From: an uncultured Bacilli bacterium
GTDB taxonomy: Bacteria; Bacillota_I; Bacilli_A; RF39; UBA660
Direction: 5' to 3'
DNA length: 64,000 nt
Assembly: GCA_963931545.1 (NCBI GenBank)
Contig: OZ007025.1
Span: 887,692 to 951,691 of the forward strand
Notes under the pieces: generated by a model
Seen by the model: the letters and a program-made list of their open reading frames with translations, nothing else
The model's database searches: none
Told to the model about the DNA's origin: nothing
Program-made: the position numbers and the translations under genes
Shown here: piece after piece, positions 1 to 60,416 of the stretch
How the letters are laid out: each line of letters opens with the position of its first letter
Numbering within the stretch: position 1 is the first letter of the stretch

Positions 1-2
1 AT

Positions 3-215
3 TTAGTTTCTACGAATAAGAAATTAGTACACGATCAAGACGATTATTTTTTCCCAGAGCCAACCTTTTATAGAGTTAAAAAATTTGTAAATAATCACGC
101 AGAAATTATTGACGAATTACCTAAAAATATGACTTATAAAGAATATTTAAAATATAAAGAAAGCACTTATGAGAATAAAAAAGATATTGAAAAAGGCAGC
201 ATGGAATTGGGCTAA
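3..215 (+). CDS. C-terminal fragment of unknown protein, probably mobile-element cargo (ORF continues upstream of window)
   Basis: An open frame runs from the window edge to a TAA at 213-215. It sits directly upstream of the coupling-protein gene. No motif was recognised. Confidence 0.2.
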   Translation, partial: LVSTNKKLVHDQDDYFFPEPTFYRVKKFVNNHAEIIDELPKNMTYKEYLKYKESTYENKKDIEKGSMELG

Positions 216-313
216 ATTTTGGGGTACACATTACCGTATTTATTTGGCTGATAAAAAGAAAATAGCCACTATACTAGTGTATCATCATAAAATTTATATT
301 TTGGATTACAACA

Positions 314-2509
314 ATGATACTAGACAATAACCTGTCTTTTTTTTATGTCTTAATTTTATTTCTAGTAATAGGTGCAATAATATTTATAGTGTTAATACAG
401 CCTAGACTTAATCAAAGAAAAGTAAAAAATAAAAATGAGTATGGCTCATCAAAGTTTGCTACCAAAAAAGAAATTGCTAAAACGTTTAAAAAAGAAAATA
501 TTTATAATATCAAAGAAGCTGGCTTTCCTGTTTATTTTGAAAATAAAAATAATCAGTTTGAATATGTTTACTTTGATAATATAAGTCCTCATTGGCTTTT
601 AATTGGTAGTACTGGCTCTGGTAAATCAGCAACAGTTGTACTTTCAGAGTGTATAATGTTTGCTACTGCTAAAGAAAAAGAAAGCTTAATTATCACTGAT
701 CCTAAAGGCGAAATATTTTCTAAAACTTCTAGTATATTTAAAGATAATGGCTATGAAAATATTATTACTATTGATTTTAGGAATCCTCATTTATCTACGC
801 ATATAAATATTATGCAACCGATTATTGATGAGTGGAAAGTTCATTGTGTATATGAAGAAAAGTTATTTTATTCTATCTGTTATTTATTTCATATTTTACA
901 AATTGATTTTGAACAAATTATTATAAATGAACAATATAAAAATAATATTAAAGTAACTTATAAACTAGATGACTATATCATTGAGTATATTTTAAATAAC
1001 ATTGATGCTATCAAAGATAAACTAGAAAGCGAAGATTTTTTTGATTTATTAAAAGAAAAAGTTGATTATGAATACAAATCTATTAATAATTCGGAGCTTT
1101 TAAATTATATAAAGCAATATCAAAATCAAAGTTCTTCTAGTCAAGCTGAAGCTACTAGACTTATTAATAATTTAGCTGATTTAATATTCGCTGAAAAAGA
1201 AACAAAAGATCCGTTTTGGTTAAACTCATCTAAAAATCTTTTCAAAGGTATTGCTGGTATTTTTTTAGAAGATTACGAAAGTGGCTTGATACCAGAAAAT
1301 AAGATAAATGTTTCTAGTATTAAAAAGTTTCAAAACTCCTCTTTATTAAAAGAAAATCAAATCTATTTACAGAGAAACTTAAATACTAGAGATTATGGTA
1401 CTATTTCAAAAGATTATCTTACTTCTATTTTATCGGCGAGTGAAAATACATATAAATCAATTACAGCTGTCTTTGGCGAAAAAATGCAAATCTTTGATGA
1501 CCTTAATGTAGAAAACATTACTAGCTCTAGTGATTTTGAAATATCTTCTTTAGTTGATAAACCTAGTGTACTTTATATTATCGTTCCTGACGAGGATAAG
1601 AGCTATTACCAGCTCGTTACTATTATTGTAGGTATTCTTTATAAGGAACTAACTAAAATCGCTAATATGCCCCATAATAACGGAAAATTACCACGTAAAA
1701 TTGAGTGGATATTAGATGAGTTCGCAAACTGTCCACCGTTGAGTGATATTGAAACGATCGTATCTGTTGCTAGATCAAGAAATATGCGTTTTCAATTCTT
1801 TATTCAGTCTTTTGCTCAACTAGACCAAGTTTATGGGAAAGAATCATCTTCTATTATTCAAGATAATTCAGCACTTACATATCTAAAAACTAACAGTATT
1901 GACTGTGCCGATGTTATTAGTCGTAAACTTGGTAAATCCACTATTGAAACCCAGTCAATAAGCCAAAGTACTGACACCTTTAAAGTAGGTGCTAATAAGA
2001 CTACTTCTCTACTTGGTAGGGAACTTTTAACGGCTAATGAAATAATCGCTTTAAAATATAAAACTATTATTTTTCCAACCGTTTCTAATCCAATTTTTAG
2101 AGATACTTATTTATATAGTGATATATTTAAAAATTATCAATTTAATCCAATTACTAGACAAATAAAAATGATTAAGAAGAATACTCAAAATTATTATACT
2201 GTTGAACAAATGAGAGCTAACTATGAAAATCAAAATAATGACGAAGATAGTTCTGATGACAGTGATATTATGCCTATTGAAAATAATATATCTAATTTAT
2301 CTTTTGTTATATCCAATATTGAAGATATATTAAAAGTAAAAGCTAATAACAATAAAATAGTTTTAGATAGAAAGATTAATATGTATGAAGAAAACAAAAT
2401 ATTAGAACAACTACTACCTATGATTAATATAGAAATTAAGACTGTAAGTGAAAGTAATAAAACGATTATTACTTTTTTTGATGCTGAAAAGTATCGTTAT
2501 TATTTATAA
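314..2509 (+). CDS. Type IV secretion coupling protein (TraG/VirD4/TraD family ATPase) of a conjugative element
   Basis: The protein has an N-terminal TM helix, a Walker A motif (GSTGSGKS) and a large 731-aa soluble domain. It lies immediately upstream of an excisionase-like and an integrase gene. Confidence 0.6.
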   Translation: MILDNNLSFFYVLILFLVIGAIIFIVLIQPRLNQRKVKNKNEYGSSKFATKKEIAKTFKKENIYNIKEAGFPVYFENKNNQFEYVYFDNISPHWLLIGSTGSGKSATVVLSECIMFATAKEKESLIITDPKGEIFSKTSSIFKDNGYENIITIDFRNPHLSTHINIMQPIIDEWKVHCVYEEKLFYSICYLFHILQIDFEQIIINEQYKNNIKVTYKLDDYIIEYILNNIDAIKDKLESEDFFDLLKEKVDYEYKSINNSELLNYIKQYQNQSSSSQAEATRLINNLADLIFAEKETKDPFWLNSSKNLFKGIAGIFLEDYESGLIPENKINVSSIKKFQNSSLLKENQIYLQRNLNTRDYGTISKDYLTSILSASENTYKSITAVFGEKMQIFDDLNVENITSSSDFEISSLVDKPSVLYIIVPDEDKSYYQLVTIIVGILYKELTKIANMPHNNGKLPRKIEWILDEFANCPPLSDIETIVSVARSRNMRFQFFIQSFAQLDQVYGKESSSIIQDNSALTYLKTNSIDCADVISRKLGKSTIETQSISQSTDTFKVGANKTTSLLGRELLTANEIIALKYKTIIFPTVSNPIFRDTYLYSDIFKNYQFNPITRQIKMIKKNTQNYYTVEQMRANYENQNNDEDSSDDSDIMPIENNISNLSFVISNIEDILKVKANNNKIVLDRKINMYEENKILEQLLPMINIEIKTVSESNKTIITFFDAEKYRYYL

Positions 2510-2533
2510 AAAATGAAAGGAGGAATTACTTAT

Positions 2534-2830
2534 ATGCCTAATGATGAAGTTATTGATTATTTAAAAAATATTACTGTCTGCGAATTTATATCTTTAATGG
2601 CTAATAATGATAAAACTAAAAATACTTCTACGGTTTATACTACTGATGAATTATTAGAACACTATCCAATGTTTAGTAGATTTACTTTAAACAAAGCTAT
2701 TAAGGAGCAAAAATTACCATACTATCGTGAGGGACACAAAATGTATTTTGAAAAGAAATTAGTCGATCAATGGATTAATGAACATACTTCTACTTATACC
2801 AAGAGAAATAAAGATAAATATAGGCTATAA
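2534..2830 (+). CDS. Excisionase-like HTH DNA-binding protein (Xis/HTH_17-like)
   Basis: A small basic protein whose C-terminal half resembles excisionase-family HTH domains. An AAAGGAGG RBS sits 10 nt before the ATG at 2534 (the track ORF starts earlier, at 2513). The gene sits between the T4CP and integrase genes. Confidence 0.45.
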   Translation: MPNDEVIDYLKNITVCEFISLMANNDKTKNTSTVYTTDELLEHYPMFSRFTLNKAIKEQKLPYYREGHKMYFEKKLVDQWINEHTSTYTKRNKDKYRL

Positions 2831-2839
2831 GACAGAATT

Positions 2840-4120
2840 ATGAGTGAAACAAAGAAATATCCATATACAGTAGAGCCTAATATAATTAAATTAGCTCCAA
2901 ATTATTATAGAATATTGATAAAAAAAGGTAGTGGTAAAAATCAACAAGTATTTTCTGAATATGTATCAGGTAAAATTGGAGATGCTAGAGCTGTTAAAAG
3001 AAAGGGTTTTGCAGAGTTAGAAAATCAAAAAGCAAAAGAAAAGGATAAAGGAAAAATAACATTATTTGAATTTAGTAAAGAGTGGTTACAATTTTGTAGA
3101 GATACAGGATTAAGCCCTACAACTATAAATGGTTATAAAACTAGATTAAATAATTATATATTACCAGAACTAGGTGGCTATCCGTTAGAAAAAATAAATG
3201 CTTATGTTATTGATAAGCTATTTGTAGAATTAAAAAACCGTGATAAACAAACACCTAATTCAGATGGGGAAATAGAAAAATTATCCTCATCTTCTTTAAA
3301 TGGTGCATACCGAGTTTTAAGAAATTTATTAAACAGAGCTGTTATATGGGATTATATCGAATATAATCCTATTCATAAAGTAAAATGTCCATCAGCAAAA
3401 CCTCGTAAAGAAAAAGAAACTTATAATAAAGAAGAATTATTTACTACAATTAAGTTATTATTAGACTACAATAAAAAATATGGTGGTATGTTTATTATTG
3501 ACTGTTGTACTGGTTTAAGAAGATGCGAGTTAAATGGACTTCATATTGAAAAAACAAGAAAGCATGATAAAGATATAGAATTAGACGTTGAGTTTGTTAA
3601 TAAAGATGGTGAAAAATATATCGGTGGACTTGTGTTCGCTAGACACTCTGTTGTTTTTGACAAAGAGCTTAAAAAGGTTGTTGAAAGAGATATACCTAAA
3701 ACCGAAAAAGGAAAACGTGGTATTCCAATACCCCCTATATGTGTTGAAGCAATACGTGAGTGTATAAAATATCGTGAAAAAGAAATCCAGTTATTAAGAA
3801 ATAAATACGGTAAAGATTTAGAAATTGTCCCAAATTTATTTTTAGGAAAAACTGGAGGCTTAATGCACCCAGATACTTTGAGCCATAACTGGACTAAATT
3901 CAGAGAAAGAAATAAAGGGTTACTACCAAATAAAAATGTAACTCTTTATGGGTTACGTCATAGCTTTTGTACTTATATGAGAACTAATCCAGAAATTACT
4001 ATAAATGAAATCATGAATTTAATGGGACATACAGACGAAAAAACAACCGATAATTATACCCACTCAAATAGAGAAATTGGCGATAAAATTATTGGAATGT
4101 GGGACGGTTTAGAGCTTTAA
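2840..4120 (+). CDS. int: Tyrosine-type site-specific recombinase / phage-ICE integrase
   Basis: The C-terminal catalytic domain carries the expected R (GLRRCEL), HxxR (LRHSFCTYMR) and GHTD...NYTHS (catalytic Tyr) signatures. It also has an N-terminal SAM-like and arm-binding region. The gene lies next to a tRNA 3' fragment. Confidence 0.8.
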   Translation: MSETKKYPYTVEPNIIKLAPNYYRILIKKGSGKNQQVFSEYVSGKIGDARAVKRKGFAELENQKAKEKDKGKITLFEFSKEWLQFCRDTGLSPTTINGYKTRLNNYILPELGGYPLEKINAYVIDKLFVELKNRDKQTPNSDGEIEKLSSSSLNGAYRVLRNLLNRAVIWDYIEYNPIHKVKCPSAKPRKEKETYNKEELFTTIKLLLDYNKKYGGMFIIDCCTGLRRCELNGLHIEKTRKHDKDIELDVEFVNKDGEKYIGGLVFARHSVVFDKELKKVVERDIPKTEKGKRGIPIPPICVEAIRECIKYREKEIQLLRNKYGKDLEIVPNLFLGKTGGLMHPDTLSHNWTKFRERNKGLLPNKNVTLYGLRHSFCTYMRTNPEITINEIMNLMGHTDEKTTDNYTHSNREIGDKIIGMWDGLEL

Positions 4121-4182
4121 AATAAAGGGAATTAACTAAAGTTGATCAACTTTTTAGTTAGTTCCCACTTTTTTTGTTTTTT

Positions 4183-4215
4183 AGTACCCATTTTAGTACC
4201 CACTTTTGTTAAAAT
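4183..4215 (+). repeat. Two tandem direct repeats TTTTAGTACCCA(T/C), candidate integrase arm-type binding sites
   Basis: The direct repeats were read from the sequence between the integrase stop and the tRNA fragment. Confidence 0.3.
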
Positions 4216-4360
4216 GAGTTAAAATGATTAAAAATAATTGATAGTAATTTAAAATTAAATTATAATTAATTTGTTAATACAAATAAACGAAAAGTATTGT
4301 TTTTCCTGTGTTTATTGACTGTTTGTGTTTTATGGGTGTTAATAATAGTTGATAGGTATT

Positions 4361-4421
4361 TTGAAAACGCAGTTGACTTCTAAGGCGTGGGTCGTAGGTT
4401 CGAATCCTACTGGGGACGCCA
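4361..4421 (+). tRNA. 3' partial tRNA (anticodon loop through CCA), probable attR remnant
   Basis: The sequence TTGAAAA-CGCAG, a long variable region, the T-arm GTAGGTTCGAATCCTAC, the 3' acceptor strand TGGGGACG and CCA are all present. No complementary 5' acceptor strand (GTCCCCA) occurs upstream, so the gene is truncated at the anticodon loop. A UGA anticodon with a long variable arm suggests tRNA-Ser. Confidence 0.55.
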
Positions 4422-4433
4422 TTTTAGATAATT

Positions 4434-4462
4434 AAAGCCCTTGAATTGCAGGGCTTTTTTTA
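4434..4462 (+). terminator. Rho-independent terminator
   Basis: The hairpin AAAGCCC-ttgaattgca-GGGCTTT is followed by a T-run. Confidence 0.6.
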
Positions 4463-4544
4463 TATAAAAAAACAACTATGTATTAGCAAGTTAGTTGTTT
4501 TAGTATTATTACAATTAATGATAAGTATTGAAATTAATAAAATT

Positions 4545-5906
4545 CTACTTTATATATTTATTATTTTTTTGACAAATAATACCAATATTCCAATCATTTT
4601 CACCAAGATTATCTTTTAGATATGAAAATATATTTATTATTTTAAAATTATGTTTTTCTAATAGTTCGATTATATCTTCTATTTTGAAACAAAAAATTTG
4701 TTCTTTGATATTTATGGTTATATTTTTATTTTTATCTTGTATATGATAGGAATATTCTAAATCAAGAATGTTTTTTGAGTTTAATTTGGCATTTGATTTT
4801 CTTTTTATTGTAATTTCTTTATCGTTAACTTTTTTTTCTTGAGGTGATAGTCCTTGATGCATAATACCTTTTAAATTATAAAAATTAAAATAAAAATATC
4901 CATTTTCATTTAGTACTTGATATATATTTTTAATCATGTCTTTTACTTTTTCTTTTGTTAATTGGTAATCTATCACATGTGATAAGGCAATTACACAATC
5001 ATATTTCTTTTGTGGAATATTTTTGGTGATATCTAAACATTCATATAATATATCTTTGTTTTTACGTTTAGCATATTCTATCATATCTGGGCTTATATCT
5101 ATTCCTTCTATTTTTAAGTTATTTTCTTTTAGATATTTATCATGTTCTCCTGTACCACAGCCAACATCTAATATAGTTTTTATATTGTTTTCTTTTAAAA
5201 ATTTTAATAGTATATTTATTTCTTTTTTAAAATTGCTATTTTTTAAGAAAAATATATCATAGTAATTTACTAGTTTTCCTTGAAAAGATGATGTTTGAAT
5301 GTTATTTTCTTTATCTCTTTTCAGTTTTGAGTAAATACAGCCACAGTAATCTTGACGATATAGGCCAAATTCTTTGGATAGTTCAATACTTCTTTTATAT
5401 CCATTTTTCTTTTTAAAATCAGCATATAAGTATGTTGGTTTATACTCAAAATTTAAATTTTCTCCTATTTCATTTAACCAGTTACTATTTTTATAAGGAC
5501 TGATGGAAAGTGTTGTTGTAAAATAATCAAAATTGAGCTTTTGTGCTACTTGTGCGGTTTCTCTTAGTCTTAATTCATAACATTTGTAGCACCTTTTTCC
5601 TCTTTCTTTTTCTTCTTCTAATCCTTTTGACATGTCAAAAAATTCTTGCGGATTATATCTTCCATCTAGAACTTTGATATTGTTTTTTTGAAGTTTTTGG
5701 ACAAATGTTTTTATTTCGCTTAGTCTTTTTTGATATTCTTTTTTATCTGTTATATTAGGGTTATAATAAAAAATGGTAATATCAAAGTAGTCAGTTAGTC
5801 TTTCTAAAACAGCTGATGAACATGGTGCACAACAGGCATGCAATAGAAGTGATTTTTTTTCTGATAAGTTTTGTATTTGACGCTCCATCTCTAAATCGTA
5901 GTTCAT
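4545..5906 (-). CDS. queH: Epoxyqueuosine reductase QueH (DUF208) fused to a C-terminal class I SAM-dependent methyltransferase domain
   Basis: The N-terminal 200 aa carry the QueH Cys cluster (LLLHACCAPCS, CYKCYELR, DYCGC). The C-terminal 250 aa carry methyltransferase motif I (LDVGCGTGEH), the post-I motif (IEGIDIS) and motif II (YDCVIAL). Confidence 0.6.
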   Translation of the reverse strand: MNYDLEMERQIQNLSEKKSLLLHACCAPCSSAVLERLTDYFDITIFYYNPNITDKKEYQKRLSEIKTFVQKLQKNNIKVLDGRYNPQEFFDMSKGLEEEKERGKRCYKCYELRLRETAQVAQKLNFDYFTTTLSISPYKNSNWLNEIGENLNFEYKPTYLYADFKKKNGYKRSIELSKEFGLYRQDYCGCIYSKLKRDKENNIQTSSFQGKLVNYYDIFFLKNSNFKKEINILLKFLKENNIKTILDVGCGTGEHDKYLKENNLKIEGIDISPDMIEYAKRKNKDILYECLDITKNIPQKKYDCVIALSHVIDYQLTKEKVKDMIKNIYQVLNENGYFYFNFYNLKGIMHQGLSPQEKKVNDKEITIKRKSNAKLNSKNILDLEYSYHIQDKNKNITINIKEQIFCFKIEDIIELLEKHNFKIINIFSYLKDNLGENDWNIGIICQKNNKYIK

Positions 5907-12123: not shown

Positions 12124-13181
12124 TTGTTTTTCCTCATTTCTAACATATCATAAAAAGCTTCTAATCTAGTTTTAATTCCCGTTTCTGAAGTGGTGGTATC
12201 AAAACTAAAAAATAAAACTGGTTTTTGATATGTACTTGCAATTTTATTAATTATAGGCATAGCTCCTATTTCAGGCGTACAGAAAGATGATTTAATATGA
12301 ATTATTCCATCGTAATCATTTTCACATAAGTATTTACATCTTGCGATATTATCAGAAGCATCAGCTCCCATATTATATTTAAAATATTCTTTAGCATATT
12401 TTTTGTATTTTTTAGTTTTTTTTGCTTTTTCGAATAACAAATAATGAACATTGGTAAACCTTTTAATTTCAATATGATGTTTAGCTAACTGTTTTTCTAA
12501 AAAATAGTTAGAAAATGGCTCCATTATAGTATATAACTCTCCTATTATTCCAATTTTAATCCTATTATCTGGTTTATGAATTTTTATTTTATGGAATTTA
12601 TTTAAATATTTTTTATATGTTGGTTTTAATTCTTTATATCTTTTAATATGAGAAAATTCTATAAGCATTTCTTTTTTTAGACTTTCAAAAGTACCTTTTT
12701 TTATCTCAAAACCTATATTTTCTCTAATATAATTATCTATCTCATCCATATATTTAACCATTTTAAATGTAATAAAACTATAATATAAAGCTTTTATTTT
12801 AGAGTATTTTGGATTTATAATTTTCAACAACTTATTTATCCTTTTAAATCTAGTAACTCCTTCTGTAACTAAATTAATTATGGTACATTCATAACCTAAA
12901 TCTTTAATAATTTTTTCTTGCACCTCTGCATAATAACCATATCTACATCCTCCACCCATTTGAATTAAAATATCGGCTTTTTCTTCTAAACATTCTATCA
13001 TTGTTCCTAAAGTATATTTAAATGGTGTACATACAAATTCTGGAGAATACTTAGTACCTATTTCTACTGTTTTATTAGTTATTTTAGGAGCTTTGATTAC
13101 TTTTACATTTGGAAATATATGTGAAAGTAAGTAATTTGCAGGAACATAATAATCGCCCATTTGTGGAAATGCTATTTTCAT
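12120..13181 (-). CDS. 2-hydroxyacyl-CoA dehydratase component-D-like (HGD-D/DUF2229) protein
   Basis: Family-level resemblance to HGD-D proteins. Start and stop overlap the neighbouring genes, indicating a coupled operon with the activase. Confidence 0.45.
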   Translation of the reverse strand: MKIAFPQMGDYYVPANYLLSHIFPNVKVIKAPKITNKTVEIGTKYSPEFVCTPFKYTLGTMIECLEEKADILIQMGGGCRYGYYAEVQEKIIKDLGYECTIINLVTEGVTRFKRINKLLKIINPKYSKIKALYYSFITFKMVKYMDEIDNYIRENIGFEIKKGTFESLKKEMLIEFSHIKRYKELKPTYKKYLNKFHKIKIHKPDNRIKIGIIGELYTIMEPFSNYFLEKQLAKHHIEIKRFTNVHYLLFEKAKKTKKYKKYAKEYFKYNMGADASDNIARCKYLCENDYDGIIHIKSSFCTPEIGAMPIINKIASTYQKPVLFFSFDTTTSETGIKTRLEAFYDMLEMRKNK

Positions 13182-59699: not shown

Positions 59700-59935
59700 A
59701 CATACATACCATATTTCAACAATAAAAAAACGTCCTTAGTTAAGGACGAGTTTTCCCGCGGTACCACCTTATTTTATTTTTTAAATACTCTCAATAACTA
59801 TAACGCGTTACCGTTCTTATCTACTTTATTCAAAAAGAAACATCAAGAGTGATTTATATATTAAAATCGTTATTAGTTTCCACCATTCACTAACTCTCTT
59901 TAAACTTTTTTAATATACGCTCTCTATCATATGTT
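59700..59935 (-). promoter_or_regulatory. T-box riboswitch leader (candidate Ile specifier AUC-A) with terminator/antiterminator
   Basis: On the minus strand the T-box sequence AAUAAGGUGGUACCGCGGG is followed by the terminator CGUCCUUA-acu-AAGGACG plus U7. Upstream are an AGAGA/GUGA stem I region and a candidate specifier AAAUCAC. Confidence 0.7.
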
Positions 59936-59936
59936 T

Positions 59937-60416
59937 TTATATATCTAATTTGTCTATATCATTAATTATATCTAATTGTGATTCAATGATGCTTTTAAGT
60001 CTACGTTTTAAAACATTAATATTTCTTTTAGTCATTTCAGCATCATTTTCTATTTTTTCAGCTTTGATTAATGCATCATTTACTATTCTACTAGCGTTTT
60101 TCTTCGCATCATCTAAGATTATTTCGCTTTCATGATGAGCGGCTATTTTTAATTGGTCTGAGGTTTTTTGGGCCATGATTATGGCTCTATTTAAAGTGTT
60201 TTCCATGCGTTCATATTGTTCTAATTTTTCTTTTAGTGCGGTTGTTTCTTCTAATTTTAATTTTAATTTTCTGATTTCATCATTTTTATCGACAATTAGT
60301 TTATTTTTCGCATCTATATCGGCTATCATTTTTTCTACTCTTTTGATAACCTGATCTAAAAAGTTATTTACTTCATCTGGATCATAACCACGCATGACTC
60401 TTGTAAATTTTTCCAT
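59937..60416 (-). CDS. divIVA: DivIVA-domain cell-division protein
   Basis: The sequence FTRVMRGYDPDEVNNFLDQV and a coiled-coil are present. The gene lies downstream of sepF, with conserved synteny. Confidence 0.6.
   Translation of the reverse strand: MEKFTRVMRGYDPDEVNNFLDQVIKRVEKMIADIDAKNKLIVDKNDEIRKLKLKLEETTALKEKLEQYERMENTLNRAIIMAQKTSDQLKIAAHHESEIILDDAKKNASRIVNDALIKAEKIENDAEMTKRNINVLKRRLKSIIESQLDIINDIDKLDI

Follow-up and report, generated by a model that had tools for sequence, protein, structure and literature searches.

What kind of element ends at the start of this locus, and how has it entered a tRNA gene? The question is raised by the first 4.4 kb of the window (the whole 64,000-nucleotide stretch of contig OZ007025.1 that was analyzed, from an uncultured bacterium of the RF39 Bacilli), in which mobility genes are followed by a piece of a tRNA gene. 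A preliminary description, made from the letters of the window, had proposed a conjugative or mobilizable element integrated into the 3' end of a tRNA-Ser(UGA) gene. We evaluated this proposal by comparing occupied and empty sites.

Coupling protein and integrase genes at the right end of an element

Four element reading frames precede the tRNA-derived sequence:

3..215, + strand: 3' part of an 88-aa element ORF (frame 3 translation; no family match)
314..2509, + strand: type IV coupling protein (T4CP), VirD4-like, CD1115 family, 731 aa (Pfam, NCBIfam)
2534..2830, + strand: probable excisionase/recombination directionality factor, HTH_17-like, 98 aa (family, position)
2840..4120, + strand: tyrosine integrase (Int), 426 aa (Pfam Phage_integrase and Phage_int_SAM_3; PHROG 1 at 5e-45)

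The 88-aa ORF, called at L023:9636-9902 (window -51..215), starts 51 bp before the window. The coupling ATPase, the tyrosine integrase and the co-directional arrangement of these two genes with the HTH gene between them had all been described correctly. The T4CP matched Pfam T4SS-DNA_transf (1.8e-50), TraG-D_C (8e-25) and TrwB_AAD_bind, and it scored 265.5 bits against NCBIfam NF045973, "VirD4-like, CD1115 family" (cut-off, 250). It has an N-terminal TM helix and intact Walker A (G98-S105) and Walker B (D468-E469) motifs, and its identity to plasmid homologues does not exceed 31%. The integrase has candidate catalytic residues R227, R373, H397, and Y406 and is at most 28% identical to any integrase of GenBank phages. 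As for the excisionase-like HTH protein, the gene is present, most likely starting at ATG 2534 (GGAGG 8 nt before; alternative start at 2513) and ending 10 nt from int, but the likeness is weak, with scores below the curated cut-offs of HTH_17 (25.4 bits; cut-off, 27) and TIGR01764 (20.8 bits; cut-off, 28.8). The protein matched PHROG 66, "excisionase and transcriptional regulator," at 8.6e-5, and its family and position suggest that it is probably an excisionase or directionality factor.

A 12,377-bp insertion in the anticodon loop of a tRNA-Arg gene

The window matches locus L023 of the collection (L023:9688-22196) at 12,509/12,509 bases. In the same species, empty sites (L028 and L031) hold a single intact tRNA-Arg(tct) gene adjoining QueH, and the occupied site is the empty one plus an insert of exactly 12,377 bp, which interrupts it within CTTCTAAG. 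This comparison confirms that an element of conjugative ancestry, integrated site-specifically, has its right-hand end at window positions 1-4384 and is bounded by an attR in which a fragment of the host tRNA is displaced. Its last 4.4 kb open the window; the remaining 8.0 kb lie upstream, as anticipated, with the left junction 8.0 kb from the window. Other element-carrying genomes include OZ007022.1, OZ007038.1, and contig s1497.ctg001804l of ERZ21549425. A site-specific integrase, flanking att repeats, an insertion polymorphism, and a type IV coupling protein, all expected of an integrative and conjugative element (ICE), are found together. The right junction is organized as follows:

4121..4376, + strand: attachment-site P arm, formed by element DNA from int to core (cross-insertion comparison)
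4127..4175, + strand: terminator-like hairpin and T-run after int (RNAfold)
4181..4202, + strand: two direct TTAGTACCCA copies in the P arm, putative arm-type integrase sites
4238..4266, + strand: promoter-like TTGATA-17-TATAAT directed toward the core (11/12 consensus positions)
4377..4384, + strand: common core CTTCTAAG, tRNA positions 32-39, i.e., anticodon loop plus one base (att comparison)
4385..4421, + strand: host tRNA-Arg(UCU) gene, displaced 3' portion (identical to empty sites L028/L031)
4434..4457, + strand: intrinsic terminator of the host tRNA-Arg gene, in the host flank (terminator scan)

The right boundary of the element falls within the core. A tRNA fragment without its 5' part does follow the integrase, beginning 256 bp past the stop codon, but it extends over 4377-4421 and not over 4361-4421 as first thought. 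These 45 nt comprise the anticodon loop CTTCTAA and, from 4385 onward, the 3' strand of the anticodon stem, a variable loop of 5 nt, the T arm, the 3' strand of the acceptor, and GCCA, and they agree at 45/45 bases with the 3' part of the intact 77-nt tRNA-Arg(tct) gene of the empty site. The fragment therefore belongs to a class-I tRNA-Arg(UCU) and not to a tRNA-Ser(UGA) with a long variable arm, and the crossover lies in the middle of the gene, in the anticodon loop, rather than at its 3' end. The fragment pairs with a host 5' half at L023:1655-1686 in both the acceptor (GTCTCCA/TGGGGAC) and the anticodon stem (ACGCC/GGCGT), and the host terminator behind it (8 pairs and a T-run) is unchanged at the empty site. 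ARAGORN found no tRNA in the whole window, and an Rfam search of 4100-4600 (E ≤ 10) found no tRNA, just an 18-nt T-arm match to tmRNA at 5.8 bits. A tmRNA 3' end was ruled out, as the acceptor end reads GGGGACGCCA and not ...CUCCACCA and the intact gene is a tRNA-Arg.

The segment 4361-4376 (TTGAAAACGCAGTTGA) is element DNA, present in every insertion as part of the P arm, which is the same or nearly so across all insertions up to ...GCAGTTGA, whatever the host tRNA. Accordingly, the expected 61-bp direct repeat shrinks to the 8-bp core: in this host, attB, attL, attR, and the reconstructed attP have only CTTCTAAG in common, and the shared stretch measures 10 to 11 bp in two other hosts. Within the P arm, the hairpin (4121-4180, -18.2 kcal/mol by RNAfold; stem at 4127-4166, then T7) is kept in a sister element whose integrase is 69% identical, and the promoter-like site has a counterpart there at an equal position. 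The two TTAGTACCCA copies are the only exact ones within the 64-kb window; the pair recurs in the element's left-end P' arm (L023:1781-1802) and is invariant in the P arm of the sister element, so we propose it as putative integrase arm-binding sites. The P arm was also aligned as a conceivable decayed tRNA 5' half with its promoter.

Gene content of the element and of its full-length relatives

The 12.4-kb element contains no mating-pore genes, not even a VirB4-type ATPase. In contrast, relatives of ∼34 kb have, upstream of the same right-hand 11 kb, a VirB4 (NF045975, 466 bits; equivalog cut-off, 590), a pLS20_p028-like membrane protein, an M23 hydrolase, a SpaA adhesin with a sortase, ArdC-N, SSB, and a primase. 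At their position, nothing but a truncated 481-aa ORF and a methylase fragment in inverted orientation is found in the window's version. Because the mating-pore genes occur only in the ∼34-kb relatives, we call the copy an ICE derivative and not an ICE; the original designation as a conjugative or mobilizable element is borne out for its ancestry but not for a pore of its own. Judged by gene content, the window's copy is a rearranged deletion derivative of a ∼34-kb ICE of uncultured RF39-like Bacilli and would be mobilizable at best. From the set expected of a mobilizable element, it has Int, the Xis-like protein, and the T4CP and lacks the type IV secretion system. Neither the 12.4-kb nor the ∼34-kb version showed a family match to a relaxase in Pfam, NCBIfam, or PHROGs, and no oriT was recognized in them; several element ORFs of 148 to 481 aa have no family match at all. 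The rest of the element was indeed found upstream, where cargo had been suspected, but Pfam, NCBIfam, PHROGs, and PADLOC recognized no defense or resistance genes, the only matches being a generic ABC ATPase, Imm51, LPD28, and a DpnD/PcfM-like protein.

The copy could be a decaying remnant fixed in its lineage and incapable of excision or transfer, with T4CP, Xis-like protein, and Int as leftovers. The loss of all pore genes, the methylase and 481-aa ORF fragments, and four single-base deletions in this genome's copy fit such decay. In this genome alone, three homopolymer frameshifts interrupt a 364-aa ORF and the element's own tRNA gene (see below) lacks one G of the D-loop GG (L023:1907), which reflects either real decay or local assembly error. 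The missing relaxase match points the same way, as does a scan for the excised circle (attP junction), confined to viral contigs, in which none was found. A P'-arm scan of the viral contigs likewise gave no matches, and a metagenome scan with a P'-arm 25-mer led to one locus only, L027, which nonetheless proved decisive. However, Int, the Xis-like gene, T4CP, and both att arms are intact, and the site is polymorphic in the species, with a clean empty site. Moreover, the short version is also present in a second genome (L018) whose adjacent host promoter region has diverged, and an identical Int occurs in 666 blocks of the collection, beside six host tRNA variants. We consequently regard an inert relic as unlikely; it would in any case bear on the activity of the element rather than on its identity and is compatible with our main explanation.

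The left junction is not a tRNA, and the element carries a complete one

At the left junction, the host 5' half is followed by the core, CGTCTGGTC, and non-tRNA DNA, and ARAGORN detected no tRNA at attL or attR. Of the tRNA 3' part, the element retains only a vestige of 17 nt (CTTCTAAGCGTCTGGTC). The classic signature that had been invoked is thus absent, since the split gene is not regenerated by island sequence beside the crossover, even though integration lies within a tRNA gene and a displaced tDNA fragment marks one end, as in tDNA islands. Instead, ARAGORN identified a complete tRNA-Arg(tct) gene inside the inserted DNA (L023:1891-1966), 197 bp inside the left end and right behind the P' arm, downstream of the host tRNA promoter and reading in its direction. 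This gene includes a further copy of the core:

L023:1922-1929: core copy inside the complete element tRNA

An intact tRNA and the other junction therefore lie well within the 100 kb upstream in which they had been predicted, but this tRNA is the element's own and not the host's. It is also found within the inserted DNA at L018:9043-9119 and L027:7581-7657 and has been kept even by the version with heavy deletions. Three different host 5' halves (L023, L018, and L027) are followed by one and the same left end, made up of vestige, arm repeats, and tRNA, and six different tRNA-Arg 3' halves have an identical right end in front of them. In one assembly, the halves at L027 (attL) and L001 (attR) pair with each other (GTTTGCG/CGCGAAC and ATCGC/GCGAT). 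Altogether, a tyrosine integrase, an attB in a tRNA gene, a short core of about 10 bp, no reconstruction of the tRNA, and a tRNA gene within the inserted DNA are found here as in tRNA-dependent integration, in a carrier that is not a temperate phage.

We considered whether the site might be composite, with an older element surviving as a relic in the 235 bp that separate the complete tRNA from the split host 5' half. The present element would then have its left boundary in the anticodon loop of that tRNA and supply the 3' half, restoring the gene canonically. Indeed, the 119 bp upstream of this gene look like a P arm (∼92 bp at 77% identity, both TTAGTACCCA repeats included), and tandem elements do accumulate at this tRNA locus (L003-L005). 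In the tandem-array genomes L004/L011, stem pairing suggests that the element may have inserted into a sister element's own tRNA. Against a composite site, the difference between occupied and empty sites is the whole 12,377 bp, 235 bp and tRNA included, the same block adjoins three different host 5' halves, and the 3' half beside int has its pairing partner in the host 5' half that was split, not in that of the complete tRNA. A composite site is accordingly improbable, and even a block of fusion origin would now move as a single unit.

A prophage or phage satellite deserves still less credence: the integrase does belong to the large phage-integrase PHROG 1, and the integration style resembles that of tRNA-dependent phages, but neither the 12.4-kb nor the ∼34-kb version has a capsid, tail, terminase, or lysis gene. 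T4CP, VirB4, PcfM-like and pLS20_p028-like proteins, the M23 hydrolase, adhesin/sortase, and ArdC are present instead, and the viral contigs were scanned without matches. Finally, a canonical island that had entered a long-arm tRNA-Ser(UGA) at its 3' end, leaving a ∼60-bp repeat and a tRNA regenerated at attL, can practically be dismissed. Although tRNA 3' ends are the common case and TTGAAAA at 4361-4367 is readable as a UGA anticodon loop, 4361-4376 is invariant element DNA before six different tRNA halves, the gene at the empty site encodes a class-I tRNA-Arg(tct) of 77 nt, only 8 bp are repeated, and attL is not a tRNA.

Taken on its own, the window shows a fairly ordinary element end. Considering all loci, we favor, with a probability of roughly 80%, a 12,377-bp element that occupies the host tRNA-Arg(UCU) gene at its anticodon loop, brings its own replacement tRNA, and derives from an ICE by deletion.

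Proposed mechanism and significance

We propose that Int inserts the element at the anticodon-loop core CTTCTAAG of the host tRNA-Arg(UCU) gene. The insertion splits the gene and leaves the tRNA unrebuilt at the left junction. The element's complete tRNA-Arg(UCU) would then stand in for the split gene as decoder of AGA, the dominant Arg codon (361/460 Arg codons, 78.5%, in 42 long ORFs). Since the element tRNA would replace the split gene, integration should be tolerable where the stems of the host tRNA differ. Dependence on the carried tRNA presupposes that the host has no second tRNA-Arg(UCU) copy. Precise excision by Int, with the HTH protein as directionality factor, would restore the host gene, and any transfer of the window's copy would proceed only through the pore of a helper.

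Textbook tRNA-targeting islands repair the gene that they split, and island-finding software relies on this repair. To our knowledge, the alternative strategy has been described so far only for some phages and demonstrated experimentally only in actinobacteriophages. On balance, we lean toward "bring-your-own-tRNA" integration by a conjugative-element lineage in uncultured gut Bacilli. If this is true, it is the first non-phage case of tRNA-dependent integration and carries the mechanism into a further phylum and a further class of mobile element. The element would need only the universally conserved anticodon loop of tRNA-Arg(UCU), with no match in the acceptor, T, and anticodon stems, and could enter many species, six host tRNA variants being seen here. 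As only the 8-bp core must match, the arrangement suggests a simple route to broad host range. The carried tRNA would also render the left end undeletable save by precise excision, hence its retention in the gutted 12.4-kb derivative, and it would offer a fresh landing pad for the next element, leading to tandem arrays. Such a strategy would give a reason for tRNA genes to ride on mobile elements and would mean that islands of this type are mis-delimited or missed by methods that match a tRNA to its fragment. The loci form a natural series: the site is seen both empty and occupied, the host tRNA in six variants, and the element in tandem arrays as well as in full-length and gutted form.

Comparison with known systems

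The closest parallel is the tRNA-dependent lysogeny of the actinobacteriophages Fionnbharth/subcluster K4 and cluster L, in which the core is ∼10 bp, the tRNA is not reconstructed, and the phage carries a tRNA matching it in isotype; the Lj965 prophage of Lactobacillus johnsonii is mentioned alongside (Guerrero-Bustamante & Hatfull, mBio 2024, PMC10865867). By definition, the disrupted host tRNA is essential there, as the sole gene of its anticodon, and the phage tRNA is needed for survival of the integrant (PMC10865867). Our element shares with these phages a tyrosine integrase, arm-type sites (putative here) on both sides of the core, an attB in a tRNA gene, and a carried tRNA of the same anticodon, and the tRNA is not rebuilt at the junction because the common core has only ∼8 to 10 bp. 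It differs in its carrier, a conjugative-element lineage (T4CP; VirB4 and others in the full-length relatives), in its host, an uncultured low-GC RF39-like Bacilli bacterium, and in its target, tRNA-Arg(UCU) instead of tRNA-Lys(UUU). Unlike in the phage system, the tRNA gene lies right behind the P' arm and downstream of the host tRNA promoter, and dependence is presumptive here, with indirect evidence in the AGA usage and in the retention of the tRNA by the deleted version. No ICE example of this mechanism was found in the literature searched, the coverage of which is incomplete.

Among the islands delimited by Islander, 2083/3919 have the anticodon sublocation (class A; Hudson et al. 2015, PMC4383910; Williams 2002, NAR 30:866). 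With class A, the element has in common a tyrosine integrase, an anticodon-loop crossover, and a displaced 3' tDNA fragment at one end. However, canonical islands place the tRNA 3' part beside the core and regenerate the gene, whereas here the 17-nt vestige is accompanied by a separate whole gene, so that a search by tRNA-fragment pairing would set the left end 235 bp too far in.

As in ICEs and IMEs of Firmicutes and Mollicutes, the T4CP is VirD4-like and above the CD1115 family cut-off, and the full-length relatives share with them a VirB4 of the Mycoplasma-ICE type (Mbov_0397 family), a pLS20_p028/Mbov_0396-like membrane protein, a PcfM-like protein, a cell-wall hydrolase, SSB, and ArdC. 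In contrast to those ICEs, no relaxase was recognized here by family match and the pore is absent from the window's copy. Mycoplasma ICEs use a DDE transposase, whereas this lineage has a site-specific tyrosine integrase acting at a tRNA, and its VirB4 stays below the equivalog cut-off. A survey of Mollicutes ICEs does not mention tRNA genes as targets (PMC12205969).

Among solved structures, the best relative of the integrase is 6EN0 ("Int protein"), aligned over the catalytic region at E = 4e-5, a very weak similarity. We take this entry, along with 6EMY and 6EMZ, to be the Tn1549 integrase. As in Tn916 and Tn1549, the integrase lies at the end of a Firmicutes conjugative element beside a small Xis-like protein. 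Tn916-type integrases have low target specificity and insert into AT-rich DNA, in contrast to the integrase of the present element, which is specific for one anticodon loop.

Integration splits a tRNA-Arg(UCU) gene at its anticodon loop

A host tRNA-Arg(UCU) gene is split when the element integrates and is left unrepaired; the element itself brings in a substitute gene of identical anticodon. At the right end, three genes lie on the + strand within 1-4462, in agreement with the co-directional arrangement given in the preliminary description:

314-2509, + strand: type IV coupling protein, 731 aa (Pfam T4SS-DNA_transf, 1.8e-50; TraG-D_C; TrwB_AAD_bind)
likely start 2534 with GGAGG upstream, between the other two genes, + strand: small HTH protein, weakly excisionase-like
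2840-4120, + strand: tyrosine integrase, 426 aa (Pfam Phage_integrase and Phage_int_SAM_3; PHROG 1 at 5e-45)

The identical integrase is present in 666 collection blocks of public contigs, and we aligned the DNA 3' of its stop codon across contigs that carry it. In the aligned contigs, the element sequence was constant up to ...AACGCAGTTGACTTCTAAG and then gave way to six different tRNA 3' halves. Each of the six comprised a CTTCTAA loop (anticodon UCU), a variable loop of 5 nt, the T arm, and the acceptor strand. Because the element sequence is unchanged ahead of six different tRNA halves, positions 4361-4376, earlier read as a UGA loop, are element DNA. The tRNA-derived part, 4377-4421, comes from a class-I tRNA-Arg(UCU). 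The displaced tRNA piece that had been noticed is thus present, but it does not begin at 4361 and is not from the tRNA-Ser(UGA) that had been proposed. ARAGORN called no tRNA in the entire 64-kb window, and no Rfam tRNA match was obtained around 4100-4600, even at an E value of ≤10.

The left junction was found in L023, part of a metagenome contig of 530 kb, which is identical to the window over 12,509/12,509 bases (L023:9688-22196) and extends 9.7 kb further upstream. Its parts are, in order:

L023, upstream of the host 5' half: host tRNA promoter
L023, between that promoter and the core: host tRNA 5' half, GTCTCCATAGCTCAGCTGGATAGAGCAACGCC
L023:1687-1694: left copy of the core, CTTCTAAG
L023, after the core and ahead of the complete tRNA: CGTCTGGTC and DNA not derived from a tRNA, in which TTAGTACCCA occurs twice
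L023:1891-1966: complete tRNA-Arg(tct), inside the inserted DNA

The host 5' half in L023 pairs with the 3' half in the window in both the acceptor stem (GTCTCCA/TGGGGAC) and the anticodon stem (ACGCC/GGCGT). Furthermore, a look-up via the neighbouring QueH protein retrieved element-free contigs of the same species (L028 and L031), which contain a single intact 77-nt tRNA-Arg(tct) composed exactly of these two halves. Relative to this empty site, the occupied one is longer by 12,377 bp. The initial view that this is the end of an integrated conjugative-type element was correct. The sole stretch common to attB, attL, attR, and the inferred attP (...AACGCAGTTGA-CTTCTAAG-CGTCTGGTCTATCAAG...) is CTTCTAAG, and ARAGORN called no tRNA at attL or attR, so the suggestion of an insertion into the 3' end that restores the gene was wrong. 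The circular form carrying the attP junction was not found in the viral contigs scanned.

Between the promoter of the tRNA-Arg gene and a host gene for a 193-aa protein, L023 also contains an additional 1,080 bp that include a 165/198-aa ORF (L023:502-1581, ∼8.1-9.2 kb ahead of the window's first base), where the empty-site strain L028 has ∼23 bp. This extra stretch is absent from every other fetched locus.

The element carries its own tRNA-Arg(UCU)

The complete tRNA-Arg(tct) is the element's gene, not the host's. It falls within the 12,377 bp, and one left end abuts host 5' halves of three kinds, each preceded by other genes, in L023, in the complete MAG chromosome L018, and in locus L027. 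Since L027 and L001 come from a single assembly and their tRNA halves form matching stems (GTTTGCG/CGCGAAC and ATCGC/GCGAT), they mark either end of the same insertion, in a distant host. The L023 assembly alone shows four single-base deletions (L023:1907, 3282, 3682, and 4153), all in the left 2.5 kb of the element; one takes out a G from the D-loop GG of the element tRNA and three break a 364-aa ORF. They may reflect real decay or a consensus error next to a repeat. Several assemblies break in this region, where the contigs of L021, L024, and L025 end.

The first 17 nt of the P' arm, at the element's left end, are a tRNA-like vestige (positions 32-48), beyond which the similarity is lost. 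The P' arm shares ∼92 bp at 77% identity with the P arm, between the integrase gene and the core (L023:1781-1872 versus window 4181-4272), and both arms contain the TTAGTACCCA pair, of which the window has no other copy. Both the core and the repeats are also those used by a sister integrase of 69% identity. In the P arm, a near-consensus promoter (window 4238-4266) points across the core to the displaced tRNA half and its terminator; a chimeric RNA with the tRNA 3' half at its end may be made.

The substitute tRNA is the point of interest. The host would need it, and AGA accounts for 361 of the 460 Arg codons counted in long ORFs of the window. The host tRNA promoter and a TG-extended -10 within the P' arm may both drive transcription of the substitute tRNA, as may the P-arm promoter in the excised circle. 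A match to the anticodon loop alone would suffice, so mismatched hybrid tRNAs would be avoided in hosts with different stems; the six host tRNA variants are consistent with such loop-only matching. Precise excision would restore the host gene.

The element appears to derive from an integrative conjugative element

In the coupling protein, a TM helix lies at the N terminus and both Walker motifs (A and B) are intact; the protein passed NCBIfam NF045973 ("VirD4-like conjugal transfer protein, CD1115 family") with 265.5 bits (cut-off, 250). The closest solved structure to the integrase is 6EN0, "Int protein" (E value of 4e-5). The HTH protein scores under both curated excisionase cut-offs (Pfam and NCBIfam) and matches PHROG 66 at 8.6e-5; because of its position and family resemblance, it is probably the directionality factor, the Xis assignment being weak.

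The hosts are uncultured low-GC Bacilli with chromosomes of ∼1.5 Mb, labeled Bacilli, Mollicutes, or "Candidatus Coprosoma." From the overlapping loci L027, L038, and L011, we reconstructed a ∼34-kb relative with the same two ends, which comprises:

SpaA adhesin and sortase
DNA methylase, ArdC-N, and SSB
pLS20_p028/Mbov_0396-like membrane protein
VirB4 (Mbov_0397 family model, 466 bits, under the cut-off of 590)
M23 hydrolase and primase
right-hand 11 kb in common with the 12.4-kb version

The entire middle part is missing from the 12.4-kb version, where its place is taken by a methylase fragment in inverted orientation and an ORF truncated at the 5' end. The 12.4-kb version is thus a rearranged deletion derivative of an ICE, formally IME-like; it could be mobilised at best with the pore of a helper. 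Family-profile searches recognised no relaxase in either version, and no defence or resistance cargo was recognised in the element.

The mating-pore proteins of the full-length relatives (L011:83-4522; L038:10001-14440) scored best against Mycoplasma-ICE families (Mbov_0397 VirB4; Mbov_0396/MMCAP2_0566 membrane protein) and pLS20_p028. Through their pore proteins, these elements of RF39-like gut Bacilli are linked to the ICEs of Mollicutes, yet the former have a tyrosine integrase.

Tandem elements and neighbouring genes

The tRNA-Arg(UCU) locus gathers tandem elements in other fetched loci (L003/L004, 11538-17480; L005, 11538-17650; L011, 21357-21443). The second element contains SSB, a 518-aa ORF, an Xis-like gene, and Int2 (69% identity), with the same CTTCTAAG core and arm repeats, and in a smaller third one the integrase is truncated and a duplicated 3' half of the canonical kind is present; close by is a TnpB (OrfB_IS605) gene. 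Between the first and second elements lies a tRNA half that probably derives from the second element's own tRNA, since it would not pair properly with the 5' half inferred for the host. In another host, the region downstream of attR (L006:12333-21229) contains a further T4CP-like gene, sigma-70 fragments, a MerR regulator, and ABC/FtsX genes, and may be another mobile element beside the same tRNA.

Beside the locus, the host gene at window 4545-5906 (- strand), convergent to the tRNA gene, encodes a tRNA-modification enzyme with an extra domain, QueH (epoxyqueuosine reductase, 4.7e-71) fused to a class-I SAM methyltransferase domain. The sole Rfam family over its gathering score in the window is a T-box leader (59739-59939, - strand, 111.8 bits), which presumably regulates the downstream minus-strand gene(s).

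Comparison with known systems

No conjugative element appears in the titles and abstracts listed for 20 of the 23 papers using the term tRNA-dependent lysogeny, tRNA genes go unmentioned in a 2025 survey of ICEs in Mollicutes, and our further literature searches found no such conjugative-element case. Anticodon-centred att sites are common in tDNA islands (2083/3919 in Islander), where the tRNA gene is regenerated (PMC4383910), in contrast to the split gene left unrepaired here. In tRNA-dependent lysogeny, defined experimentally in actinobacteriophages and mentioned as likely for Lj965 of Lactobacillus johnsonii, the tRNA is not regenerated and an element-borne tRNA compensates (PMC10865867). 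The present element works in the same way, but its carrier is not a phage.
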